A DNA stretch of 36,214 nucleotides from a virus, in IMG/VR virus record IMGVR_UViG_3300046822_000108, positions 1 to 36,214 of that record; one strand, 5' to 3'. A program made the position numbers and the translations under genes. The notes under the pieces were generated by a model. That model was not told the origin of the DNA. It did not search any database and saw nothing but the letters and a program-made list of their open reading frames with translations. Shown in pieces: positions 1 to 36,214 of the stretch. Position 1 is the stretch's first letter, and each line of letters starts with the position of its first letter.

Positions 1-127
1 CATGCATATCCGGCTGGTTGACCCGACCGGCAAGCGCGACACCGTCATCAATCACCACCGCGTGTGGGACCGCGACCGGTTCTACCAAGCGCAGGTGAAG
101 CTGCACGAAAACCCAAATAAGGAGATC
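1..127. repeat. Terminal direct repeat copy 1 (identical to 36088..36214)
   Basis: Read by eye: catgcatatccggctggttgaccc...aaataaggagatc occurs at both ends. A 127-nt overlap is typical of a k=127 assembler circular overlap. Confidence 0.95.
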
Positions 128-196
128 GAGGACCGCCGTCTGGTGTCGATCGCCACCGAAGCCGAATACCAGGAAGCACGGAAGGTGACCAAATGA
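2..196 (+). CDS. Hypothetical protein, 3' part of the junction-spanning ORF (same gene as 36074..36214)
   Basis: The ORF continues from the ATG at 36074 across the circular junction. Its stop overlaps the recT start (ATGA at 193). Confidence 0.5.
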   Translation: MHIRLVDPTGKRDTVINHHRVWDRDRFYQAQVKLHENPNKEIEDRRLVSIATEAEYQEARKVTK

Positions 197-1131
197 GCCA
201 ACCCACCCAACTGGCGCAGATGCAAACCAGCGCCGTCGCCAAACCCAACGATGCCCCCATGTCGCTGCTGACCGGCTCCGGCTTCGAGCAGCTGCAGCGC
301 GTTGCCAAGGCGCTCAGCGCTTCCACCCTGGTACCTGCGCAGTACCGCGCGTTCACCGAGATCAAGAAGTTCGGTCGGGTTGAAGGCCACCAGCCAAACC
401 CCGCCGGCCTGCCCAACTGCGTGGTGGCGCTGAACATGGCCATGCGCATGGGCGCTGACCCGCTGATGGTGATGCAGAACCTGTACGTCATCGAGGGCCG
501 TCCCAGCTGGTCGAGCCAGTTCATCATCGCAGCCATCAATAGCTGCGGGCGGTTCAGCCCGCTGCGGTTCGAGATCAGCGAGCCGGGCAAGTCGGAGAAG
601 GTGAAGTACACCGCCGTGGTGTGGAAGTCGGGCAACAAGTCCGAAGAAGCCCGCGAGGTGACCATCCAGCATCGCACCTGCCGTGCCTGGGTCATCGAGA
701 AGGAAACAGGCGAACGCCTGGACGGCCCTACCGTATCGATGCAGATGTCCATCGACGAAGGCTGGCTCACCAAGAACGGCAGCAAGTGGCAGACGATGCC
801 AGAAATCATGCTGCGGTACCGGGCGGCCAGCCTGTTCGGGCGCCTCTACGCACCTGAGCTGCTGATGGGCCTGCAAACGCAGGAAGAAGTGCACGACTTC
901 ATCGACGCCACCCCTGATGGCGCTGGCAACTACACCGTCGACGTGAACGACCTGCGCAACCGCGAGCCCGAGGCCCCCGCCATCATCGAGACCGACGACG
1001 GCGACCAGGTCAACGTTGACACCGGCGAGATCATCGAGCCGACCTCTGCTGATGTGCAAAAACAGGAGACCACCGAGCAGGCAGACGCCGAGCCTGATGG
1101 CGCCGACGACGCCGAATTTCAGTTCGAGTAA
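193..1131 (+). CDS. recT: RecT-family single-strand annealing recombinase
   Basis: 312 aa. Core ALNMAMRMGADPLMVMQNLYVIEGRPSWSSQFIIAAINSCGRF and C-terminal MPEIMLRYRAASLFGRLYAPE resemble RecT/SSAP proteins, followed by an acidic tail. A partner exonuclease gene lies just upstream across the junction. Confidence 0.75.
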   Translation: MSQPTQLAQMQTSAVAKPNDAPMSLLTGSGFEQLQRVAKALSASTLVPAQYRAFTEIKKFGRVEGHQPNPAGLPNCVVALNMAMRMGADPLMVMQNLYVIEGRPSWSSQFIIAAINSCGRFSPLRFEISEPGKSEKVKYTAVVWKSGNKSEEAREVTIQHRTCRAWVIEKETGERLDGPTVSMQMSIDEGWLTKNGSKWQTMPEIMLRYRAASLFGRLYAPELLMGLQTQEEVHDFIDATPDGAGNYTVDVNDLRNREPEAPAIIETDDGDQVNVDTGEIIEPTSADVQKQETTEQADAEPDGADDAEFQFE

Positions 1132-1136
1132 CGCCC

Positions 1137-1337
1137 ATGCCAGCCCTGACCGTGCAAGAGCAGTACGACCACGTCGAGGAATTCACCGCCATCCTGGTCG
1201 CTGCTGAGCTGCACGCGGCCGGGGCCTGGGAAATCGAATTCACCGACGACATGCGGGCCAACTTCAACCGTTACGGCCCGCACACCCACCTGAGCCCCGC
1301 ACAGCGCAAGACGCTGGAGCGCATCGCCAAGCACTGA
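1137..1337 (+). CDS. Hypothetical protein (66 aa)
   Basis: ATG lies 5 nt after the recT stop. High GC3 and tight operon packing. Confidence 0.5.
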   Translation: MPALTVQEQYDHVEEFTAILVAAELHAAGAWEIEFTDDMRANFNRYGPHTHLSPAQRKTLERIAKH

Positions 1338-1346
1338 GGAATCTCA

Positions 1347-2183
1347 ATGAAGACTGAACACATCGAAGCAATCGACCGCGCCCGCCGCCATGGCGTCCCA
1401 TCCATGCTGTTCGCCCACCAGCTGATGGTGCGTGACCTGGTTGAGGCCGCGCTGTTCGAGCTGCGCAACACCAAGGTGCCCTTCCCCCGCCTGGGCGAAG
1501 ACGACCAGCAAGAGGTCATCGACCGCCTGACCCAGCAAGCCGAAGAAGTGGTCACCACCGCGATCAGCATCATCAGCTCGCGCAGCGTCGACACCATCCC
1601 GGTCACCGTGGTGGACGCCAAGTTCAAGGCCAAGGCCATCACTGTCACCGCGGCCATTGACGCCCAAGACCCGAACCGGCACGGGCTGATCGACGTTGCC
1701 GGCAAGCTGTGCCTGCTGGTGCTGGCGCCCAATGACTACGCCGAAGGCATCGACGGTGTGCGGGCTGAGCGTGATCAGCGTGAGCTGCCGCTGAGTGCTG
1801 GCGCCATTGCCGAGGCGATGTACCGCCGTGATCCCGCGCCGGAGCCAGACGACGAGCCGGACAGCCAGGCGGTGGACCTGGATCCAGCACCGCAAACCAA
1901 AGACGACATCGTCGACGCCGAATGGCCCTCGACGATGGCCAACTTCGACACCTTTGGTGAGCACACCTACACCGAGGCCAGCCAGATCGTGGTGCTGCAC
2001 GGTGACGTGATCGACGCTGCCTGGCTGCAGCGCCGCCTGGTCATCGACAGCGAATCGGCCACCAGCCTGCTGCTGCGCCTGCTCGAAGACAGCGTGATCC
2101 AGCTGGAGGCCGAAGCCGAAGACCGGATCGATTACACCTACAAGGTCACCGCCAACCTCGATGCCACCCTCGAACTGGAGTAA
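1347..2183 (+). CDS. Hypothetical acidic protein with possible C-terminal FtsK-gamma-like winged helix
   Basis: 278 aa, RBS GAGGA at 1336-1340. C-terminus ASQIVVLHGDVIDAAWLQRRLVIDSESATSLLLRLLEDSVI resembles the LQRRL..IGY.RAARL..LE motif of FtsK gamma domains. No metallophosphoesterase motifs. Confidence 0.55.
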   Translation: MKTEHIEAIDRARRHGVPSMLFAHQLMVRDLVEAALFELRNTKVPFPRLGEDDQQEVIDRLTQQAEEVVTTAISIISSRSVDTIPVTVVDAKFKAKAITVTAAIDAQDPNRHGLIDVAGKLCLLVLAPNDYAEGIDGVRAERDQRELPLSAGAIAEAMYRRDPAPEPDDEPDSQAVDLDPAPQTKDDIVDAEWPSTMANFDTFGEHTYTEASQIVVLHGDVIDAAWLQRRLVIDSESATSLLLRLLEDSVIQLEAEAEDRIDYTYKVTANLDATLELE

Positions 2184-2186
2184 GCC

Positions 2187-3929
2187 ATGCGCCTGAACAG
2201 CATCTTCGTCGAAAACTTCCAAGGCCTGCAGTCTGCAACCCTGGAACTGCCCCGCCCCATCACCGTGGTCACCGGCATGAACGGTGCCGGCAAGTCCTCC
2301 CTCAAGGAGGCCATCGGCGTGGCCCTGGGCGAACCCGCGCGCGTGTCGCTGAAAAAGGACTACGGTCAGATGGTCACCGAGGGCCACAAGAAGGGCCAGG
2401 TGGTGATCAACCACGACGACGCATCTAGCAGCTTCACCCTGCCGAAGGGCGTGGTGGAGCACTCGCCAGTCGCCGGCGAGGAATACTTGCACTTCGTGTT
2501 GAACCCTCAGGCCTTCGCCGCGATGGACGACAAGAGCCGACGCGGCATGCTGTTCAAGCTCTCCAAGGCCAGCGCCAGCCCCAACGTCACGATCCAGAAG
2601 CTGCGTGAACGTGGCGCCGACGCTGACAAGGCCGAGAAGATCAAGTCGATGTTGCTGAGCGGCTTCCCCGCTGCCCAGCAATCGGCCAAGGATTACGCCG
2701 CCGAGGCGCGCGGCGCCTGGAAAGCCATCACCGGCGAGGTCTACGGCAGCGAGAAGGCCGAGGGTTGGGCTGTCACCATCCCCGAAGGCCAGGACGCGTC
2801 GGACGCCAACGCAGAGGATGTGTTCAAACTGCACGAAACCGCGGCCGCCGAAGTCGAGAAGGGTGTGAAGTTCCTCGGCGGGCTGGAAGCGAAGCGCGAA
2901 GCAGCTGCAGGCTATGAGGCCCGTAAAGCGCAGCTCTCAGCGGATGCCGAGCTGCTTGAGCGTGCCGAGATCAAGAAGGGTGTCACTGAGCTGGACCTGA
3001 GCCGCCTGGTGCCCAAGGTCGAAGCCATGGCCGCCGAGCTCAACAGCCTGACGGTTGGCGCCGAAAGCTGCGACTGCCCGGGCTGCGGTATTGCGCTCAA
3101 GATTGCTGGCAACAAGGTGGAGCTGTTTGACGGTATCAAGGGGGAGGTGAAGAAGCGCAGCGACCTGGCCCTGGAACTGACCAAGACCAAGGACGCGGTG
3201 GCGATGCTGAACCGCACCCTGCAGAACGACGTGGCGGCGGTGACCACCGCGGCCAACGCCAAGGCCGAGCTAGACAAACTGTTGGCCGATGGCAACCAGG
3301 GTTTCGACCAAGCGCTGTTCGACAAGACCACTGAGGCCCTGACCGCTCAGCGCTTGAAGTCCGAGCAGCTGCGCGCCAAGTACAACGCACTGTTCGACCG
3401 TGAGCGCCTGATCAAAAGCGCCGCCGCCGAGACCGCCAAAGCAGCCGCACACCACCAGGACGTTGTCGAGTGGGTGCTGATCGAGAAAGCCCTGGCACCT
3501 GATGGCATCCCCACCGAGATCCTGAAAGGTGCGCTGCAACCCATCAACGATACGTTGGCCCAGCTTTCGACCAGGGCGAAGTGGCCCAAGGTCGAGATCG
3601 ATACCCAGATGGCAATCACCGCCGGCGGGCGCCTGTATGGGCTGCTGTCCGAGTCGGAAAAGTGGCGCTGCGACACCCTGCTTGGCCTGACTGTGTCGAA
3701 GCATGCCGGCTTGAAGTTCCTGGTACTGGACCGCTTCGACGTGCTGGACCTCCCGGGCCGTGGCCAGTTGCTGGGCATGCTGGTGGGGCTGGCCAAGTCC
3801 GGCGAGCTCGACAGCGCGGTGGTCTGCGGCACGCTCAAGGAGAAACCCAAGGATCACCCGGCCATCAACGCGGTGTGGATCGAAGGCGGCACGGCCAACG
3901 GCGCCGAACAGCTGCAGCAAGCCAGTTAA
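2187..3929 (+). CDS. Rad50/SbcC-like ABC-type ATPase with central CPxC zinc hook
   Basis: 580 aa. Walker A is GMNGAGKSS near the N-terminus. The long helical A/E/K/L-rich middle carries SCDCPGCGIALK at its midpoint (aa ~293-301). C-terminal signature-like LSESEKW and Walker B FLVLDRFDVLD. Confidence 0.75.
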   Translation: MRLNSIFVENFQGLQSATLELPRPITVVTGMNGAGKSSLKEAIGVALGEPARVSLKKDYGQMVTEGHKKGQVVINHDDASSSFTLPKGVVEHSPVAGEEYLHFVLNPQAFAAMDDKSRRGMLFKLSKASASPNVTIQKLRERGADADKAEKIKSMLLSGFPAAQQSAKDYAAEARGAWKAITGEVYGSEKAEGWAVTIPEGQDASDANAEDVFKLHETAAAEVEKGVKFLGGLEAKREAAAGYEARKAQLSADAELLERAEIKKGVTELDLSRLVPKVEAMAAELNSLTVGAESCDCPGCGIALKIAGNKVELFDGIKGEVKKRSDLALELTKTKDAVAMLNRTLQNDVAAVTTAANAKAELDKLLADGNQGFDQALFDKTTEALTAQRLKSEQLRAKYNALFDRERLIKSAAAETAKAAAHHQDVVEWVLIEKALAPDGIPTEILKGALQPINDTLAQLSTRAKWPKVEIDTQMAITAGGRLYGLLSESEKWRCDTLLGLTVSKHAGLKFLVLDRFDVLDLPGRGQLLGMLVGLAKSGELDSAVVCGTLKEKPKDHPAINAVWIEGGTANGAEQLQQAS

Positions 3930-3951
3930 CCCACATACGAACCACCCCTAC

Positions 3952-3972
3952 GGCGCCTACGGGCGCCTTTTT
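3952..3972 (+). terminator. Rho-independent terminator after the ATPase gene
   Basis: GGCGCC-tacg-GGCGCC hairpin followed by TTTTT. Confidence 0.6.
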
Positions 3973-3993
3973 CACGCCCAAAGGAAACTCAAC

Positions 3994-4605
3994 ATGTCCC
4001 AACTGATCTGCGTGTTCGACACCGAAACCACCGGCCTGCCGGCGTTCAAGCTGCCCAGCGATGCCCCATCGCAGCCCCACCTGGTGGACATCTGCGCCCT
4101 GCTTTACACGCCCGAGGGTGAGCTGGTCGATTCTTTCGAGGCCATGATCAAGCCTGACGGCTGGGTCATCCCCGACGAAGTGGCCGCGATCCACGGCATC
4201 ACCACCGAGATGGCCCTGGAACAAGGCATCCCGGAAATGGAAGCGCTGGGCGGCTTCCTCAACGTCTACATGCGCGCTGGCCTGCGGGTGGCCCACAACT
4301 GCAGCTTCGACGACCGGATCATGCGCATCGCCATCATGCGGATCATCGGCACCGAAGCCGCTGACGCGTTCAAGGTCGAGCCCAGCTACTGCACCGCGCT
4401 CATGTCGAAGCCCATCTGCCAGCTGCCGCCCACCGAGCGTATGAAGCAGACCAACTTCCGCAACAGCTTCAAGACCCCGACCGTTGCCGAGGCGCTGAGG
4501 CACTTCTACGGCGAAGAGCTGATCGGTGGCCACCGCGCGCGGCCCGACACCGAGGCCTGCGCCCGCATCTACTTCGCCATGAACCCGGCCGCGGCTGTCG
4601 CCTAA
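3994..4605 (+). CDS. DEDDh (DnaQ/epsilon-like) 3'-5' exonuclease
   Basis: Internal ATG of ORF 3760..4605, preceded by AAGGAAA. Exo I is VFDTETTGL, Exo II is HNCSFDDRIM, Exo III is HRARPDTEACARIY. Confidence 0.8.
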   Translation: MSQLICVFDTETTGLPAFKLPSDAPSQPHLVDICALLYTPEGELVDSFEAMIKPDGWVIPDEVAAIHGITTEMALEQGIPEMEALGGFLNVYMRAGLRVAHNCSFDDRIMRIAIMRIIGTEAADAFKVEPSYCTALMSKPICQLPPTERMKQTNFRNSFKTPTVAEALRHFYGEELIGGHRARPDTEACARIYFAMNPAAAVA

Positions 4606-30156: not shown

Positions 30157-30600
30157 CTACGCCGGAAGCATTTCGAGTGGGACAACGCGCACGCTGACAC
30201 CTGGGGTTTCCGCAAAGCGTTTGCTCAGCACCACGTTTACGACCTGAACGTCGTCCTTCCAGACGATCCCGTTTAGCGCATCGCACACCGCCTTGAGGCA
30301 GTTGTCGGCATCGCACTTGATCGTCGGGGCGATCTCACCCGCCAGGGCGCCGGCCTTTTTCTTTTTCGACCAAGAGTCGCGGATGGGGTGGAGCATTTTC
30401 ATCTCCAGCAATACAGGCCCAGCGAGCATGGGGCGCCCGTCCATTGCGGTCTGCGCTGCCAATGCAATCAAACCCTCATAGGCCAGGGTCTTTGTGGGGG
30501 TAAACATCCTGGCATGGGCGCCGACCTTGCCGATGCGCGGCCGCCCCTTGCCTTGCGGCTCACCGGGCACCAGGAATGAGACTGGCTTGAGATCAGACAC
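30157..30600 (-). CDS. rusA: RusA Holliday junction resolvase
   Basis: GTG at 30600 with GGAG 7 nt upstream. FLVPGEPQGKGRPR ... KCDADNCLKAVCDALNGIVWKDDVQV are RusA family motifs. Confidence 0.8.
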   Translation of the reverse strand: MSDLKPVSFLVPGEPQGKGRPRIGKVGAHARMFTPTKTLAYEGLIALAAQTAMDGRPMLAGPVLLEMKMLHPIRDSWSKKKKAGALAGEIAPTIKCDADNCLKAVCDALNGIVWKDDVQVVNVVLSKRFAETPGVSVRVVPLEMLPA

Positions 30601-30775
30601 GGGCGAGCTCCTTCTGCATGGCTTCGGTGAGCAGCTCGCGAATGGCCTTGGCGCTTTGCTCGAGCAACAGCACCGTGGCGAGCACTTCGCCCTGGGCGAG
30701 TGCGCGGGTGTTCTGGGTGGCCAGTACCTGGGCCTTGGCGTCGATGCGCAGCAACAGGCTTGTGTAATCAAGCAT
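30593..30775 (-). CDS. Hypothetical protein (60 aa)
   Basis: Internal ATG at 30775 overlaps the P-like gene stop by 8 nt. Confidence 0.45.
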   Translation of the reverse strand: MLDYTSLLLRIDAKAQVLATQNTRALAQGEVLATVLLLEQSAKAIRELLTEAMQKELARV

Positions 30776-31511
30776 CGGGGCTTCTCCGAATGCCCATACG
30801 GGCCAGCAACAGCGCACGGGCTGCCTTGGGGTCGGTGGGGATGTTCTGGGCAATCAGCAGATCGCGGGCTTCCTGGTGCGACTGGGCGAGCTGCATCTGG
30901 CGTGGTGTCTTGCCGTCGTGGCTTATCCCGGCGTTGATGCGTCCTTCCAGCGGCTGCCCGGTCTGTGCACGGCGCATGACGATCGCGTAGTTGCGCTCGA
31001 ACTGCTGGTACAGGGCCTTGTTGGTCGGCTTGGACTCGCGCAGATCGAACGTGCCTGTTGCCTCGGCGGCGATCTTGACGGCCGGGTGGGTGTACACGCC
31101 TTTCAGGGCTTGGATCCAGGCTTCGTCGGTCGATGGCATGCCGCTGACCTGCAGGCACAACTGACGAAAGACGTTGGCAGGTGGCGGCCAATCGAACTCG
31201 GCGCCCTTCTCCACCAGAACACCCATCCCGATGGCCAGCTGCGCACCGCTGAGACCTCCAAGCACCTTGCCCCAGACGCTGTCGGGCTGCGGCTCAAGGC
31301 CGTAGTTGGTGACCCAGCGGTGGCCGTACATCTCAATCATCTTGAACCACAGTTTCTCCAGCAGCCTGTCGGGCAGCTTGTCTGGCGTCGAGTCGCTCTC
31401 GGGCTTGGTCGACAACGGATCGAGCGCCTTGCCGAGAAGATCTGCGGCCTTGGGAGGCAGAGTTTTGGGTTTCTGCTTGGGCAGATCCTGATCGGTCGTG
31501 TCCACGGTCAT
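30768..31511 (-). CDS. Lambda P-like replication protein (helicase loader)
   Basis: WGKVLGGLSGAQLAIGMGVLVEKGAEFDWPPPANVFRQLC is collinear with lambda P WVLAFRENGITTMEQVNAGMRVARRQNRPFLPSPGQFVAWC. GC3 in this frame is about 79 percent over codons 1-58 (hand count). Confidence 0.7.
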   Translation of the reverse strand: MTVDTTDQDLPKQKPKTLPPKAADLLGKALDPLSTKPESDSTPDKLPDRLLEKLWFKMIEMYGHRWVTNYGLEPQPDSVWGKVLGGLSGAQLAIGMGVLVEKGAEFDWPPPANVFRQLCLQVSGMPSTDEAWIQALKGVYTHPAVKIAAEATGTFDLRESKPTNKALYQQFERNYAIVMRRAQTGQPLEGRINAGISHDGKTPRQMQLAQSHQEARDLLIAQNIPTDPKAARALLLARMGIRRSPDA

Positions 31512-34619: not shown

Positions 34620-34813
34620 CCACATCACTGGTTAAGACGCTCATCGATGAGCAGCTCGAAGAAGTCGAGTTCGCCGGCAAGACCAAAGCAATCGCCCTGC
34701 GGCTGGCCCAGCGCCAGGGCTTCACCGGTGATCCAGCTCGCTATGGCTGGGTCGCTCCTGGTATCTGGCTGCTGCGGTACCGCCAGCCGATTCGCCCTCG
34801 GGGGAAATCATGA
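34616..34813 (+). CDS. Hypothetical protein (65 aa)
   Basis: Internal ATG at 34616 after GGAGGG. ATGA overlaps at both ends. Confidence 0.45.
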   Translation: MTTSLVKTLIDEQLEEVEFAGKTKAIALRLAQRQGFTGDPARYGWVAPGIWLLRYRQPIRPRGKS

Positions 34814-35292
34814 ATGTCGGCCTGTGCTTGTGCGGATGCGGACAAGCAACACGGATTGCACCGGTAACTGATCGCAGTAAGGGCTGGATAAAGGGGCAGC
34901 CGCTCAAATACATGATGGGCCATCGGCTAAAAGCGGGTGCCTCCATGGAGAAATCTCCACGTTGGAAAGGTGGCCGCTACCTCTCAACGCATGGGTATGT
35001 GCTGCTCAGCACTCCTGATGGCAGGCAGTACGAGCACATTCTGGTAGCAGAAAAAGCTATTGGGCGAGCGCTGCTTTACATCAGTCCAGGCCACCCCGAC
35101 AACGAGGTCGTACACCACATCAACGGCGACAAGCAGAACAACGGGCCCAACAACCTGCTGGTTTGCACTCACCGTTATCACTTAGAGCTGCATCACCGAC
35201 TGGAGGATTCGCCCGAATGGCCTGAGTTCACCAAGGTAGTGCGCAACACCAAGGAGAAAGCCCGTGAGCACTATCACAATTCGAGCCAGTAG
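34810..35292 (+). CDS. HNH endonuclease
   Basis: EVVHHINGDKQNNGPNNLLVCTHRYHLELHH is the HNH core. N-terminal Cys cluster is CLCGCG. Confidence 0.8.
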   Translation: MNVGLCLCGCGQATRIAPVTDRSKGWIKGQPLKYMMGHRLKAGASMEKSPRWKGGRYLSTHGYVLLSTPDGRQYEHILVAEKAIGRALLYISPGHPDNEVVHHINGDKQNNGPNNLLVCTHRYHLELHHRLEDSPEWPEFTKVVRNTKEKAREHYHNSSQ

Positions 35293-36067
35293 TTGGGGCT
35301 CCCTCTTCTCTTGCGCCTACCAGTGGGAATACGTGCACATCCTCGGGCACCGCTCTGCTGGCAGCCCCCGCGCCCAGCTCGGCACCGCGATTCACGCCAG
35401 CACGGCCGCCTTCGATGCTTCGCGCATCAACGGCAGCGGCCTGTCGGCCTACGACACCGCCGAGCTGCTGGTGCACACGCTGCGCAATCCGGACTACGAC
35501 GTGGACTGGCGCGGCTCCGACATCACGCTGGGCCAGGCCGAACAGGTCGGGCTGCAGCTGCACACCAAGTACTGCACCGAGATCAGCCCCCGCTATGACT
35601 ATGTGGCGATTGAGCTGACCACCAAGCCGCTGGAAATCGATTGCGGCAACGGTGTGGTGATCCGCCTGACCGGCCAGCTGGACCGGGCGCGCATATGCAA
35701 GAGCGGCGACGGCGTCGGGATTGCTGACGTGAAGACTGGCGCCGCGGCCGTTTCTGATGGGGTAGCCAAGACCAAGGGCCACGCCCCGCAGATCGGCACC
35801 TACGAAATCCTATACGAGCACACCACCGGCGAGCCCATCACCGCCGACGCCCACATCATCGGGTTGAAGACGAAGGGCAAGCCGGAAGCCGGCGTCGGGG
35901 AGATCCGCGGCGCCAAGCAAATGATGGTCGGTACCGAGGAATTTCCCGGCCTGATCCAGATCGGCGCCGAGATGCTGCGCACCGGCCTGTTCCCACCCAA
36001 CCCGCAAAGCTTCACCTGCAGCGCCCGCTATTGCCCGCGTTGGTCCACCTGCCCTTACCACGAGTAA
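35264..36067 (+). CDS. PD-(D/E)XK (Cas4/RecB-like) exonuclease with C-terminal Cys cluster
   Basis: GTG start 7 nt after AAGGAG. Nuclease motifs LTGQLDRAR...GIADVKTG and QIGTYEILY. C-terminal CSARYCPRWSTC plus an N-terminal Cys resemble the Cas4/AddB Fe-S arrangement. Confidence 0.7.
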   Translation: MSTITIRASSWGSLFSCAYQWEYVHILGHRSAGSPRAQLGTAIHASTAAFDASRINGSGLSAYDTAELLVHTLRNPDYDVDWRGSDITLGQAEQVGLQLHTKYCTEISPRYDYVAIELTTKPLEIDCGNGVVIRLTGQLDRARICKSGDGVGIADVKTGAAAVSDGVAKTKGHAPQIGTYEILYEHTTGEPITADAHIIGLKTKGKPEAGVGEIRGAKQMMVGTEEFPGLIQIGAEMLRTGLFPPNPQSFTCSARYCPRWSTCPYHE

Positions 36068-36073
36068 ACGCCC

Positions 36074-36214
36074 ATGAAAGCCCAAGACATGCATATCCGG
36101 CTGGTTGACCCGACCGGCAAGCGCGACACCGTCATCAATCACCACCGCGTGTGGGACCGCGACCGGTTCTACCAAGCGCAGGTGAAGCTGCACGAAAACC
36201 CAAATAAGGAGATC
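36074..36214 (+). CDS. Hypothetical protein, 5' part of the junction-spanning ORF (continues at 128..196 in circular coordinates)
   Basis: ATG at 36074; reads MKAQDMHIRLVDPTGKRD... into the terminal repeat. Confidence 0.5.
   Translation, partial: MKAQDMHIRLVDPTGKRDTVINHHRVWDRDRFYQAQVKLHENPNKEI
36088..36214. repeat. Terminal direct repeat copy 2 (identical to 1..127)
   Basis: Base-for-base identity with positions 1..127, read by eye. Confidence 0.95.

Follow-up and report, generated by a model that had tools for sequence, protein, structure and literature searches.

What does a Rad50-like ATPase do in a phage recombination operon that holds no Mre11? The question is raised by the IMG/VR virus record IMGVR_UViG_3300046822_000108, of which we analysed positions 1 to 36,214 (36,214 nucleotides (nt), hereafter the window), and in which a gene for such an ATPase, 580 amino acids (aa) long, lies a short way downstream of recT. 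To our knowledge, Rad50-type ATPases are understood almost solely as partners of Mre11-type nucleases; the zinc hooks of Rad50 and SbcC read CPVC and CPLC, respectively, and gp46 is about 560 aa long. We report here that the 580-aa ATPase is a conserved accessory gene of modules composed of a PD-(D/E)XK exonuclease (Exo) and RecT in temperate phages of Gamma- and Betaproteobacteria. Its family is mechanistically distinct from canonical Rad50, and it is widespread and real without being a new category, because its members already stand in public phage genomes under names that are automatic only ('AAA family ATPase', 'putative recombinase', 'chromosome segregation protein', 'SbcC-like…').

Sequence profiles and a predicted structure together place the 580-aa protein in the Rad50/SMC superfamily of ATPases, with Rad50 and gp46 as its nearest known relatives. 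Pfam matched the N-terminus only (AAA_23, 2.9e-10; SMC_N, 2.5e-8), the PDB profile match to Rad50 (3qf7, 2e-13) covered residues 1-60, and PHROG assigned aa 107-542 to phrog_77, 'SbcC-like subunit of palindrome specific endonuclease' (4.9e-24). The Rad50 models of NCBIfam matched at up to 2.7e-14 but with at most 52 bits against cut-offs of 700-1087, and the sbcc model scored 16 against a cut-off of 478; no curated family cut-off was reached. In an AlphaFold2 (AF2) model of the single chain, built with 28 homologues and showing a mean predicted local distance difference test score (pLDDT) of 87.6, the N-lobe forms a beta-sheet, helices 206-289 and 316-435 are predicted to run up and down, respectively (mostly pLDDT 82-95), and the C-lobe holds the LSESE helix and the FLVLD strand. 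As in Rad50, SbcC and gp46, an ABC head with Walker A in its N-lobe would thus be split by an antiparallel coiled coil, and the length of the protein is also near that of gp46. Comparison of the model with the PDB by Foldseek gave Rad50 first (7zr1, 3.3e-12), followed by the heads of Smc, Lamassu LmuB, cohesin, JetC and MukB, while the best matches among predicted viral structures were phage proteins annotated as 'SMC' or as a gp46-like 'recombination endonuclease subunit', with no more than 16% identity. An earlier, sequence-only reading of the window had already called the protein Rad50/SbcC-like, and the best matches in NCBIfam, the PDB profiles and Foldseek agree with it. The same reading had described three open reading frames (ORFs) of 66, 278 and 580 aa after recT, with gaps of 5, 9 and 3 nt, which the ORF coordinates confirm (all on the + strand), and had picked out Walker A, LSESEKW, FLVLDRFD and a midpoint CDCPGC, all of which are present and, judging by their conservation in homologues, not due to chance.

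When 1.84 billion representative proteins were searched with a profile, 1,683 clusters (50% identity) passed E <= 1e-30 and 3,079 passed E <= 1e-10. All but two of the 150 best-scoring representatives were 560-630 aa long, and the matches were near-universally full-length. The family is therefore a large, prophage-borne and uncharacterised clade of at least 1,683 such clusters. Conservation was counted in three sets aligned to the family profile, consisting of 80 species-level loci, 120 close homologues and 149 representatives. K36, D515 and D518 were invariant save for one alignment gap (K36 being present in 100% of the 349 members), and S488-E489-S490 was kept in at least 95% of the family. 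The residue that follows the Walker B Asp was Arg in 76/80, 118/120 and 133/149 members of the three sets, respectively, and Glu in 1/80 of the species-level loci and 5/149 of the representatives. At the H-loop position, where the window protein reads AVVCGTLK, a Lys (Lys551, in G-T-L-K) stands instead of His in about 96%. Judged by position in alignment and model, the family appears to be devoid of both the catalytic Glu and the H-loop His of hydrolysing ABC ATPases, and this replacement of D-E by D-R and of His by Lys points to ATP binding with slow or no hydrolysis. The Walker B that had been read as FLVLDRFD is thus there as a sequence, but not as part of a standard Rad50 ATPase site.

For the window ATPase the zinc-hook reading is well supported, zinc binding itself being predicted from sequence and model. 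The CPxC, which at the tip of a coiled coil is the zinc-hook motif of Rad50, is placed by AF2 between helix 257-289 and helix 316-368, in an apex of some 25 residues (290-315) that is non-helical, with small strands, a hairpin and three cysteines, and that has no hinge fold. The Cys pair was found in 116/119 close homologues, 100/149 representatives and 39/80 species-level loci; across these 39 loci, at 31-57% identity to the window protein, it holds a single alignment column, and a hydrophobic beta-hairpin always follows. As a single Cys pair is conserved, a zinc site with four ligands could form only between two chains, the arrangement of the Rad50 hook. The other 41/80 loci (L014-L016, L019, L020, L024, L025 and 34 more) display, in the part aligned to window aa 280-330, a Cys-free apex that is 15-30 residues longer and carries the motifs GL[VI]HDLA and YExxHG; such an apex may serve as another type of dimerisation tip. 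RdgC genes were enriched in the neighbourhood of the Cys-free class (13/41 loci versus 2/39 with CPxC). The CPxC hook of the sequence-only reading is accordingly borne out in its position between the coiled-coil arms at the model apex, but it is shared by only about half of the species-level loci. A separate variation was observed at the other end of the protein: the family representative P0303 (829 aa) has a C-terminal extension (~600-829) that ends in the H-NS/MvaT-type DNA-binding motif TWSGRGLRPRW, and is a natural fusion of the ATPase with a DNA-binding domain.

To determine the genomic context, we took the 80 loci, each representing a different species of Gamma- or Betaproteobacteria or, in a few cases, of another group, and scanned the stretch from 6 kb ahead of the ATPase gene to 3 kb behind it with profiles built from the related phages named below. 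The PD-(D/E)XK exonuclease was present in 67/80 loci and RecT in 58/80, followed by a DEDDh exonuclease (38/80), the N-domain of the 278-aa protein (37/80), the 66-aa gene (22/80) and RdgC (15/80). The conserved unit is Exo-RecT-ATPase; the DEDDh exonuclease is frequent, the DNA-associated adaptor is variable and optional, and the association of the ATPase with Exo and RecT looks obligate. The 66-, 278- and 580-aa trio on which the sequence-only reading had centred is not this unit. In the Pseudomonas phage phi297 the order is exo, RecT, 66 aa, 'FtsK-gamma' protein and ATPase, and variants of it are seen in PfAn1, Achromobacter phage CF418P1, Burkholderia phages BgManors32 and Magia, and Bordetella phage PY223, all of them, like phi297, cultured phages; in several loci the ATPase comes straight after RecT, at a gap of about 20-30 nt. 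The 66-aa gene, which has an equivalent at the same position in phi297, lies directly upstream of a 278-aa-family gene in 21 of its 22 loci. SMC-like or AAA ATPase genes adjoining recT in Firmicutes phages are mentioned in passing, without follow-up, in one study of Firmicutes annealing proteins (PMC8093625).

Pfam analysis of the immediately flanking ORFs of the 80 loci (79 upstream and 76 downstream, 155 in all) identified FtsK_gamma (19), RdgC (8), RMF (8), RecT (7) and RNase_T (5) on the upstream side, and RNase_T (21), DNA methylases (5) and SSB (1) on the downstream side. None of the 155 was a metallophosphoesterase. In the window itself no ORF of at least 100 aa in six frames contained a GNH[D/E] motif, and no Metallophos match was obtained among the genes neighbouring the ATPase in the Pfam and PHROG scans, so that the absence of an Mre11/SbcD partner, which had been noted from the sequence, extends to the related loci. 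A separate observation concerns the 8/79 upstream neighbours (alignment A5) that match the Pfam family RMF, 'ribosome modulation factor' (best E 2.6e-8), which is unexpected in a recombination module.

The window is a complete temperate-phage genome. Its two ends are an exact 127-bp direct repeat (1-127 and 36088-36214), indicating a circular assembly of 36,087 bp, and its gene set comprises portal, large terminase, major head protein, tail fibre, RusA, replication initiator, repressor, excisionase and integrase. Since the contig is circular, the exonuclease gene at its far end belongs to the recT operon and lies directly upstream, the order ahead of recT across the junction being HNH gene, PD-(D/E)XK exonuclease and 69-aa ORF (Table 1). 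In size and position this exonuclease matches those of phi297, PfAn1, Magia and CF418P1, and it is because the gene stands across the contig junction that the sequence-only reading overlooked this lambda-Exo-like candidate for a nuclease partner. The module genes share one strand, with gaps of 3-9 nt, between the repressor region and xis/int. This position in the early operon leading to xis/int is the place of lambda exo-bet-gam.

Table 1. Features of the recombination module in the window (positions are those of the whole window)
Feature	Position	Strand	Evidence
PD-(D/E)XK (YqaJ/lambda-Exo-like) exonuclease, first gene of the recombination module	35264..36067	+	phrog_69 'exonuclease', 4.5e-24
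69-aa ORF between exo and recT	2..196 (start 36074, inside the 127-bp repeat)	+	phrog_16104, 3.2e-21; N-terminus MKAQDMHIRL...
RecT-like single-strand annealing protein	193..1131	+	phrog_561 'RecT-like', 1.6e-91
66-aa protein of unknown function, optional module member	1137..1337	+	phrog_7521, 1.2e-29
278-aa acidic accessory protein	1347..2183	+	phrog_6576, 8.6e-59; alignment A2; AF2 model
580-aa Rad50/SMC-superfamily ABC ATPase with predicted antiparallel coiled coil and apical CPxC	2187..3929	+	profiles, AF2 and Foldseek
Walker A/P-loop GMNGAGKSS, aa 30-38	2274..2300	+	N32, G35 and K36 invariant in alignment A1
CDCPGC, aa 295-300 (midpoint of 580 aa); conserved pair C297/C300 = putative CPxC knuckle	3069..3086	+	model and conservation
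Signature-like LSESEKW, aa 487-493, at N-terminus of predicted helix 489-507	3645..3665	+	S488, E489 and S490 invariant in A1
Putative Walker B FLVLDRFD, aa 511-518; D515-R516-F-D518	3717..3740	+	strand 511-514 in model
Intrinsic-terminator-like hairpin GGCGCC-TACG-GGCGCC + TTTTT, between ATPase and DEDDh exonuclease	3952..3972	+	sequence
DEDDh (DnaQ/RNase T-type) 3'-5' exonuclease, 203 aa	3994..4605	+	Pfam RNase_T, 4.5e-11; phrog_192, 2.6e-29; PADLOC DEDDh, 1.6e-23

The RecT of the window is a diverged member of its family, as it reaches only 19.3 bits against Pfam RecT, whose cut-off is 24. When the module was searched at the DNA level against phage records, recT alone matched, being 78% identical to its counterparts in Pseudomonas phages YMC P52/P54 and PP9W, and it took protein-level searches to bring relatives to light. 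The protein ends in a long acidic tail (...DGADDAEFQFE), reminiscent of the acidic-hydrophobic C-terminal tails of SSB, which may be a protein-interaction peptide.

Three parts can be distinguished in the 278-aa protein. Its N-domain (aa 1-150) is conserved, its linker (aa ~137-196) is acidic and disordered, and its C-terminal part is a winged helix (aa ~200-270, nt 1944-2156). Its pI is 4.42, that of the winged helix 4.2. In the AF2 model the winged helix has a pLDDT of about 90 and the N-domain, with three helices, a hairpin and further helices, one of 55-76; Foldseek retrieved generic winged-helix (wHTH) proteins only, at E ~3e-3. FtsK gamma is a winged helix that reads FtsK-orienting polar sequences (KOPS) and activates XerD, and RdgC is a DNA ring protein that modulates RecA. 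Relatives of the 278-aa protein with a length of 330-360 aa contain a bona fide FtsK gamma as an insert (5e-24 to the P. aeruginosa FtsK gamma structures, PDB 2j5o), from which their database name 'DNA translocase FtsK' derives; the name is a misnomer, because no translocase motor is present. The window protein is without a true insert and without a motor, and matched nothing in Pfam FtsK_gamma (PF09397) at E up to 1. Its winged helix aligns in register with the true FtsK-gamma insert, weakly (hhalign E 1.4e-4, probability 52%), and the would-be recognition helix reads DSESATS in place of GYNRAAR, within a domain that is acidic. The FtsK-gamma-like tail proposed from the sequence can thus be retained for its fold and possibly for its origin, but not for a KOPS-binding function. 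In several longer relatives (e.g. P0122, P0123, P0130; L008, L009) the inserted gamma is near-identical to the domain of the Pseudomonas host and sits beside the older, diverged winged helix, which suggests a recent capture from the host.

We infer that the 278-aa protein is an optional adaptor in a variable slot, which in other phages holds RdgC-FtsK-gamma fusions; RdgC, often fused to FtsK gamma, usually occupies the 278-aa slot. The slot protein of CF418P1 (L006:3331-4491) is such a fusion of RdgC (Pfam, 1.1e-86) and FtsK_gamma (3.3e-20), and others were observed in L024, L025, L030, L034, L051, L052 and L084. Several candidate relationships of the 278-aa protein were tried and rejected: (i) with Mre11/SbcD, a possibility that had been singled out for checking by profiles and structure, in view of the absence of phosphoesterase motifs and of Pfam, NCBIfam and PADLOC matches and of the restriction of Foldseek matches to winged helices, which make it not a metallophosphoesterase; (ii) of its N-domain with RdgC (hhalign E 0.67), where the link is positional only; (iii) with the winged-helix proteins that follow the ATPase in Magia and BgManors32 (E 0.076 and 0.41); and (iv) with gp53 of phage D3 (E 0.31), which a preprint describes as a Gabija-licensing factor adjoining Erf (PMC12407980).

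On the other side of the ATPase, 64 nt separate its gene from that of the DEDDh exonuclease, which exceeds the cut-off of Pfam RNase_T (44 bits versus 24) and contains the motifs FDTETTG, NCSFDD and HRARPD, i.e. Exo I, II and III with the H-x4-D. The longest ORF, from a GTG at 3760 to 4605, would overlap the ATPase gene by 170 nt; the start supported by homology is the ATG at 3994, with AAAGGAAAC just before it, downstream of the hairpin. An exonuclease of this type after a terminator-like hairpin had been described from the sequence, and both are present. The hairpin is terminator-like in its sequence; the count of terminator-like sites in the region is not above that of shuffles, and the fold z-score is -1.2. 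At the place where Pseudomonas phages have the DEDDh exonuclease, the Burkholderia phages have a gene for a MarR/TrmB-like winged-helix protein of 207-229 aa (Magia gp48, L007:6264-6887; BgManors32 gp22, L003:6267-6956), which overlaps the ATPase stop by 4 nt.

What would an ATPase of this kind contribute to a module of Exo and RecT? The reading that we put forward, and to which we give an even chance, is that it is an ATP-dependent, slowly hydrolysing clamp or tether of DNA ends, which aids annealing by Exo/RecT or shields the ends from RecBCD. On ATP binding, two heads would close as a clamp around double-stranded DNA or DNA ends, and the two coiled coils would pair through a zinc shared at their CPxC tips or, in other members, through the Cys-free helical tip. 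As an Arg takes the place of the catalytic Glu, and a Lys that of the H-loop His, hydrolysis would probably be slow and the clamp long-lived. It could then hold phage DNA ends, or two homologous molecules, during end processing and annealing by RecT, with the phage nucleases standing in for Mre11: the lambda-Exo-like enzyme for the 5'-3' direction and, in about half of the loci, the DEDDh exonuclease for the 3'-5' direction. A long-lived end clamp might also keep RecBCD off the ends, as a by-product or as its main purpose. That the ATPase works on DNA is pointed to by its DNA-binding add-ons, namely the FtsK-gamma, RdgC or MarR-like winged-helix proteins that adjoin it and the H-NS-type tail fusion. 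A role in end protection is plausible because, according to a recent preprint, phage end binders of the Exo-Erf and Mu-Gam type exclude RecBCD in Pseudomonas, a study in which the present ATPase family is not involved (PMC12407980). Among the options offered by the sequence-only reading, a non-canonical end-processing complex feeding RecT fits best, once the conserved unit, the part of Exo, the ATPase site and the hook are corrected as above.

Several points weigh against this proposal. (i) The apex is the lowest-confidence part of the ATPase model (pLDDT 64-68), and about half of the species-level loci are without the Cys pair, so that the hook is inessential to the function of the family. 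(ii) A PDB search with a profile of the C-terminal head lobe alone (A3) gave no match to Rad50, SMC or any other ABC protein; as this lobe is unmatched by sequence, the signature, Walker B and H-loop were placed from the model and from the distances between motifs. (iii) The DEDDh exonuclease is a bare 203-aa domain, and the terminator-like hairpin between the two genes disfavours a tight, Mre11-like complex of ATPase and exonuclease. (iv) In Pseudomonas phage AF the 278-aa family stands beside Erf, Exo and NinB without the ATPase. (v) The Exo/RecT pairs of many phages function without any such ATPase. (vi) The zinc binding, dimerisation, DNA binding and ATPase rate of the protein are all properties that we infer, and a literature search found no published characterisation of the family.

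A more ambitious version of the proposal, which we consider doubtful, is an Mre11-independent, Rad50-like 'recombinosome', in which a hydrolysis-impaired hook ATPase would clamp and bridge the ends, Exo and the DEDDh exonuclease would provide both polarities of resection, RecT would anneal, and interchangeable adaptors would target the machine. The adaptor would be either RdgC or the protein with N-domain and winged helix, in many cases joined to an FtsK gamma domain of host origin that reads the polar KOPS motif. If this were true, KOPS targeting could give a Chi-like discrimination of host and phage DNA, or a reading of orientation, in recombination and RecBCD evasion.

The leading alternative, though we hold it to be unlikely, is a Gam-like counter-defence, in which the ATPase, perhaps with the 66- and 278-aa proteins, would cap ends or neutralise RecBCD, SbcCD or sensors of the Gabija/Lamassu type and would have no annealing role. 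The place of the module, beside exo and the annealing protein, is that of gam in lambda and of abc1/abc2 in P22; an impaired clamp (D-R, and K for H) would suit a blocker better than a processive enzyme; and the partner proteins are acidic (pI 4.4 and 5.6). Moreover, in other phages the neighbouring slot holds RdgC, which is known to antagonise RecA (PMC1885664), and exclusion of RecBCD by phage end-binders has a precedent in the preprint cited above (PMC12407980). However, no similarity to known RecBCD inhibitors or anti-defence proteins was found, and the tight link of the ATPase is with Exo and RecT, not with other anti-defence genes. This alternative also overlaps the end-clamp proposal, since an end clamp would serve both.

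It is distinctly less probable that the ATPase and the 278-aa protein form an SMC-kleisin-like pair, with the N-domain of the latter on one neck and its winged helix on the other head, so that a ring would entrap or organise phage DNA, e.g. sister or concatemeric genomes. Such a pair would resemble Smc-ScpAB, MukBEF and JetABC in having a head and coiled coil next to a protein of kleisin-like layout (N-domain folded, linker long, acidic and disordered, winged helix at the C-terminus). The acidity of the winged helix suggests protein rather than DNA binding, the stop codon of the 278-aa gene is 3 nt ahead of the ATPase start, a winged-helix gene overlaps the ATPase stop in the Burkholderia phages, and Foldseek also matched the heads of Smc, cohesin, JetC and MukB. 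In contrast, no sequence or fold match of the 278-aa protein to ScpA, MukF, JetA or any kleisin was obtained, nor is KITE homology detectable; its N-domain is poorly modelled and contains a beta-hairpin; and the ATPase is without a hinge domain. Within the family the 278-aa protein is optional, being missing from more than half of the loci, in several of which RecT abuts the ATPase, and in phage AF it occurs without the ATPase.

Still further down, and improbable to our mind, is a prophage defence or superinfection-exclusion sensor, in which a Rad50-like end sensor, comparable to Lamassu LmuB, would activate the DEDDh exonuclease or Exo against incoming DNA; a Lamassu-like role of this kind had been among the suggestions of the sequence-only reading and gained no positive support. 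It is true that LmuB, PtuA, GajA and AriA likewise have an SMC/Rad50-like head with short coiled coils, that their PADLOC profiles match the ATPase, that LmuB ranked fourth in Foldseek (9hqx, 3.8e-11) and that the DEDDh exonuclease adjoins the ATPase. The PADLOC matches, however, are limited to the generic P-loop region, mostly residues ~1-50 (best LmuB 1-52 and 1-49) and none past ~160, no LmuA, LmuC, PtuB, GajB or TOPRIM effector partner is present, and the constant companions of the gene are Exo and RecT, in an early recombination operon (exo/recT to xis/int) and not in a moron-type locus or defence island. Finally, a canonical Rad50-Mre11, SbcCD or gp46-gp47 nuclease with an over-diverged Mre11-like subunit such as the 278-aa protein, to which the PHROG name and the gp46-like viral fold matches might lead, can be taken as excluded as far as the tools used allow, given that the modelled 278-aa protein (helices, hairpin, linker, winged helix) is no phosphoesterase sandwich and has no such motifs or Metallophos match, that the genome showed no GNH[D/E] motif and the 155 flanking ORFs of the 80 loci no Metallophos domain, and that the catalytic Glu and the H-loop His of Rad50, SbcC and gp46 are absent.

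Two further genes of the window deserve mention. The HNH endonuclease gene at 34810-35292 (phrog_25114, 1.1e-67) shares 29 nt with the beginning of the exonuclease gene, and HNH genes are found at the equivalent place in PfAn1, BgManors32 and phage AF; it may be a further recurrent member of these modules. In the ORF at 30157-31191 (- strand, 344 aa) the match to the RusA Holliday-junction resolvase (phrog_140, 5e-43) is confined to the C-terminal ~140 residues, the N-terminal ~200 residues being without an assigned identity.

Overall, the module resembles lambda Red and Rac RecET in that a lambda-Exo/YqaJ-like exonuclease is followed by a RecT-family annealing protein in an early operon leading to xis/int, and differs from them in its conserved third and fourth components, namely the ATPase and often the DEDDh exonuclease together with a protein of the winged-helix or RdgC type; we know of no Red or RecET system that includes a Rad50-like ATPase. 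With Rad50, SbcC and gp46 the ATPase shares its head, its coiled coil and probably a role in a recombination module. It departs from them in the lack of an Mre11/SbcD/gp47 partner in the window and the 80 related loci, in a Walker B with D-R, an H-loop without His and a signature reading LSESE instead of LSGG, in a C-terminal lobe unrecognisable by sequence, in an apex that is Cys-free in half of the species loci, and in constant neighbours that are a PD-(D/E)XK exonuclease and RecT. The module had been proposed to be undescribed, which does not hold for its gene order, since this is present in published genomes (phi297, PfAn1, YMC P52/P54), but does hold in that their annotation is automatic only. 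It would be worthwhile to correct the misleading database names 'DNA translocase FtsK', 'chromosome segregation protein' and 'SbcC-like subunit of palindrome specific endonuclease'.

For recombineering, Exo/RecT pairs of Pseudomonas and Burkholderia prophages are employed without the accessory genes described here. Should the ATPase and its adaptor increase recombination of double-stranded DNA, or protect linear DNA from RecBCD, they could allow better editing in non-model Proteobacteria. The module is also relevant to the ways in which temperate phages deal with RecBCD and with end-sensing defences such as Gabija. A family of Rad50-like ATPases that is without Mre11 and without the catalytic Glu, and that is wired to annealing by Exo and RecT, would offer a natural test of what the Rad50 scaffold contributes on its own.

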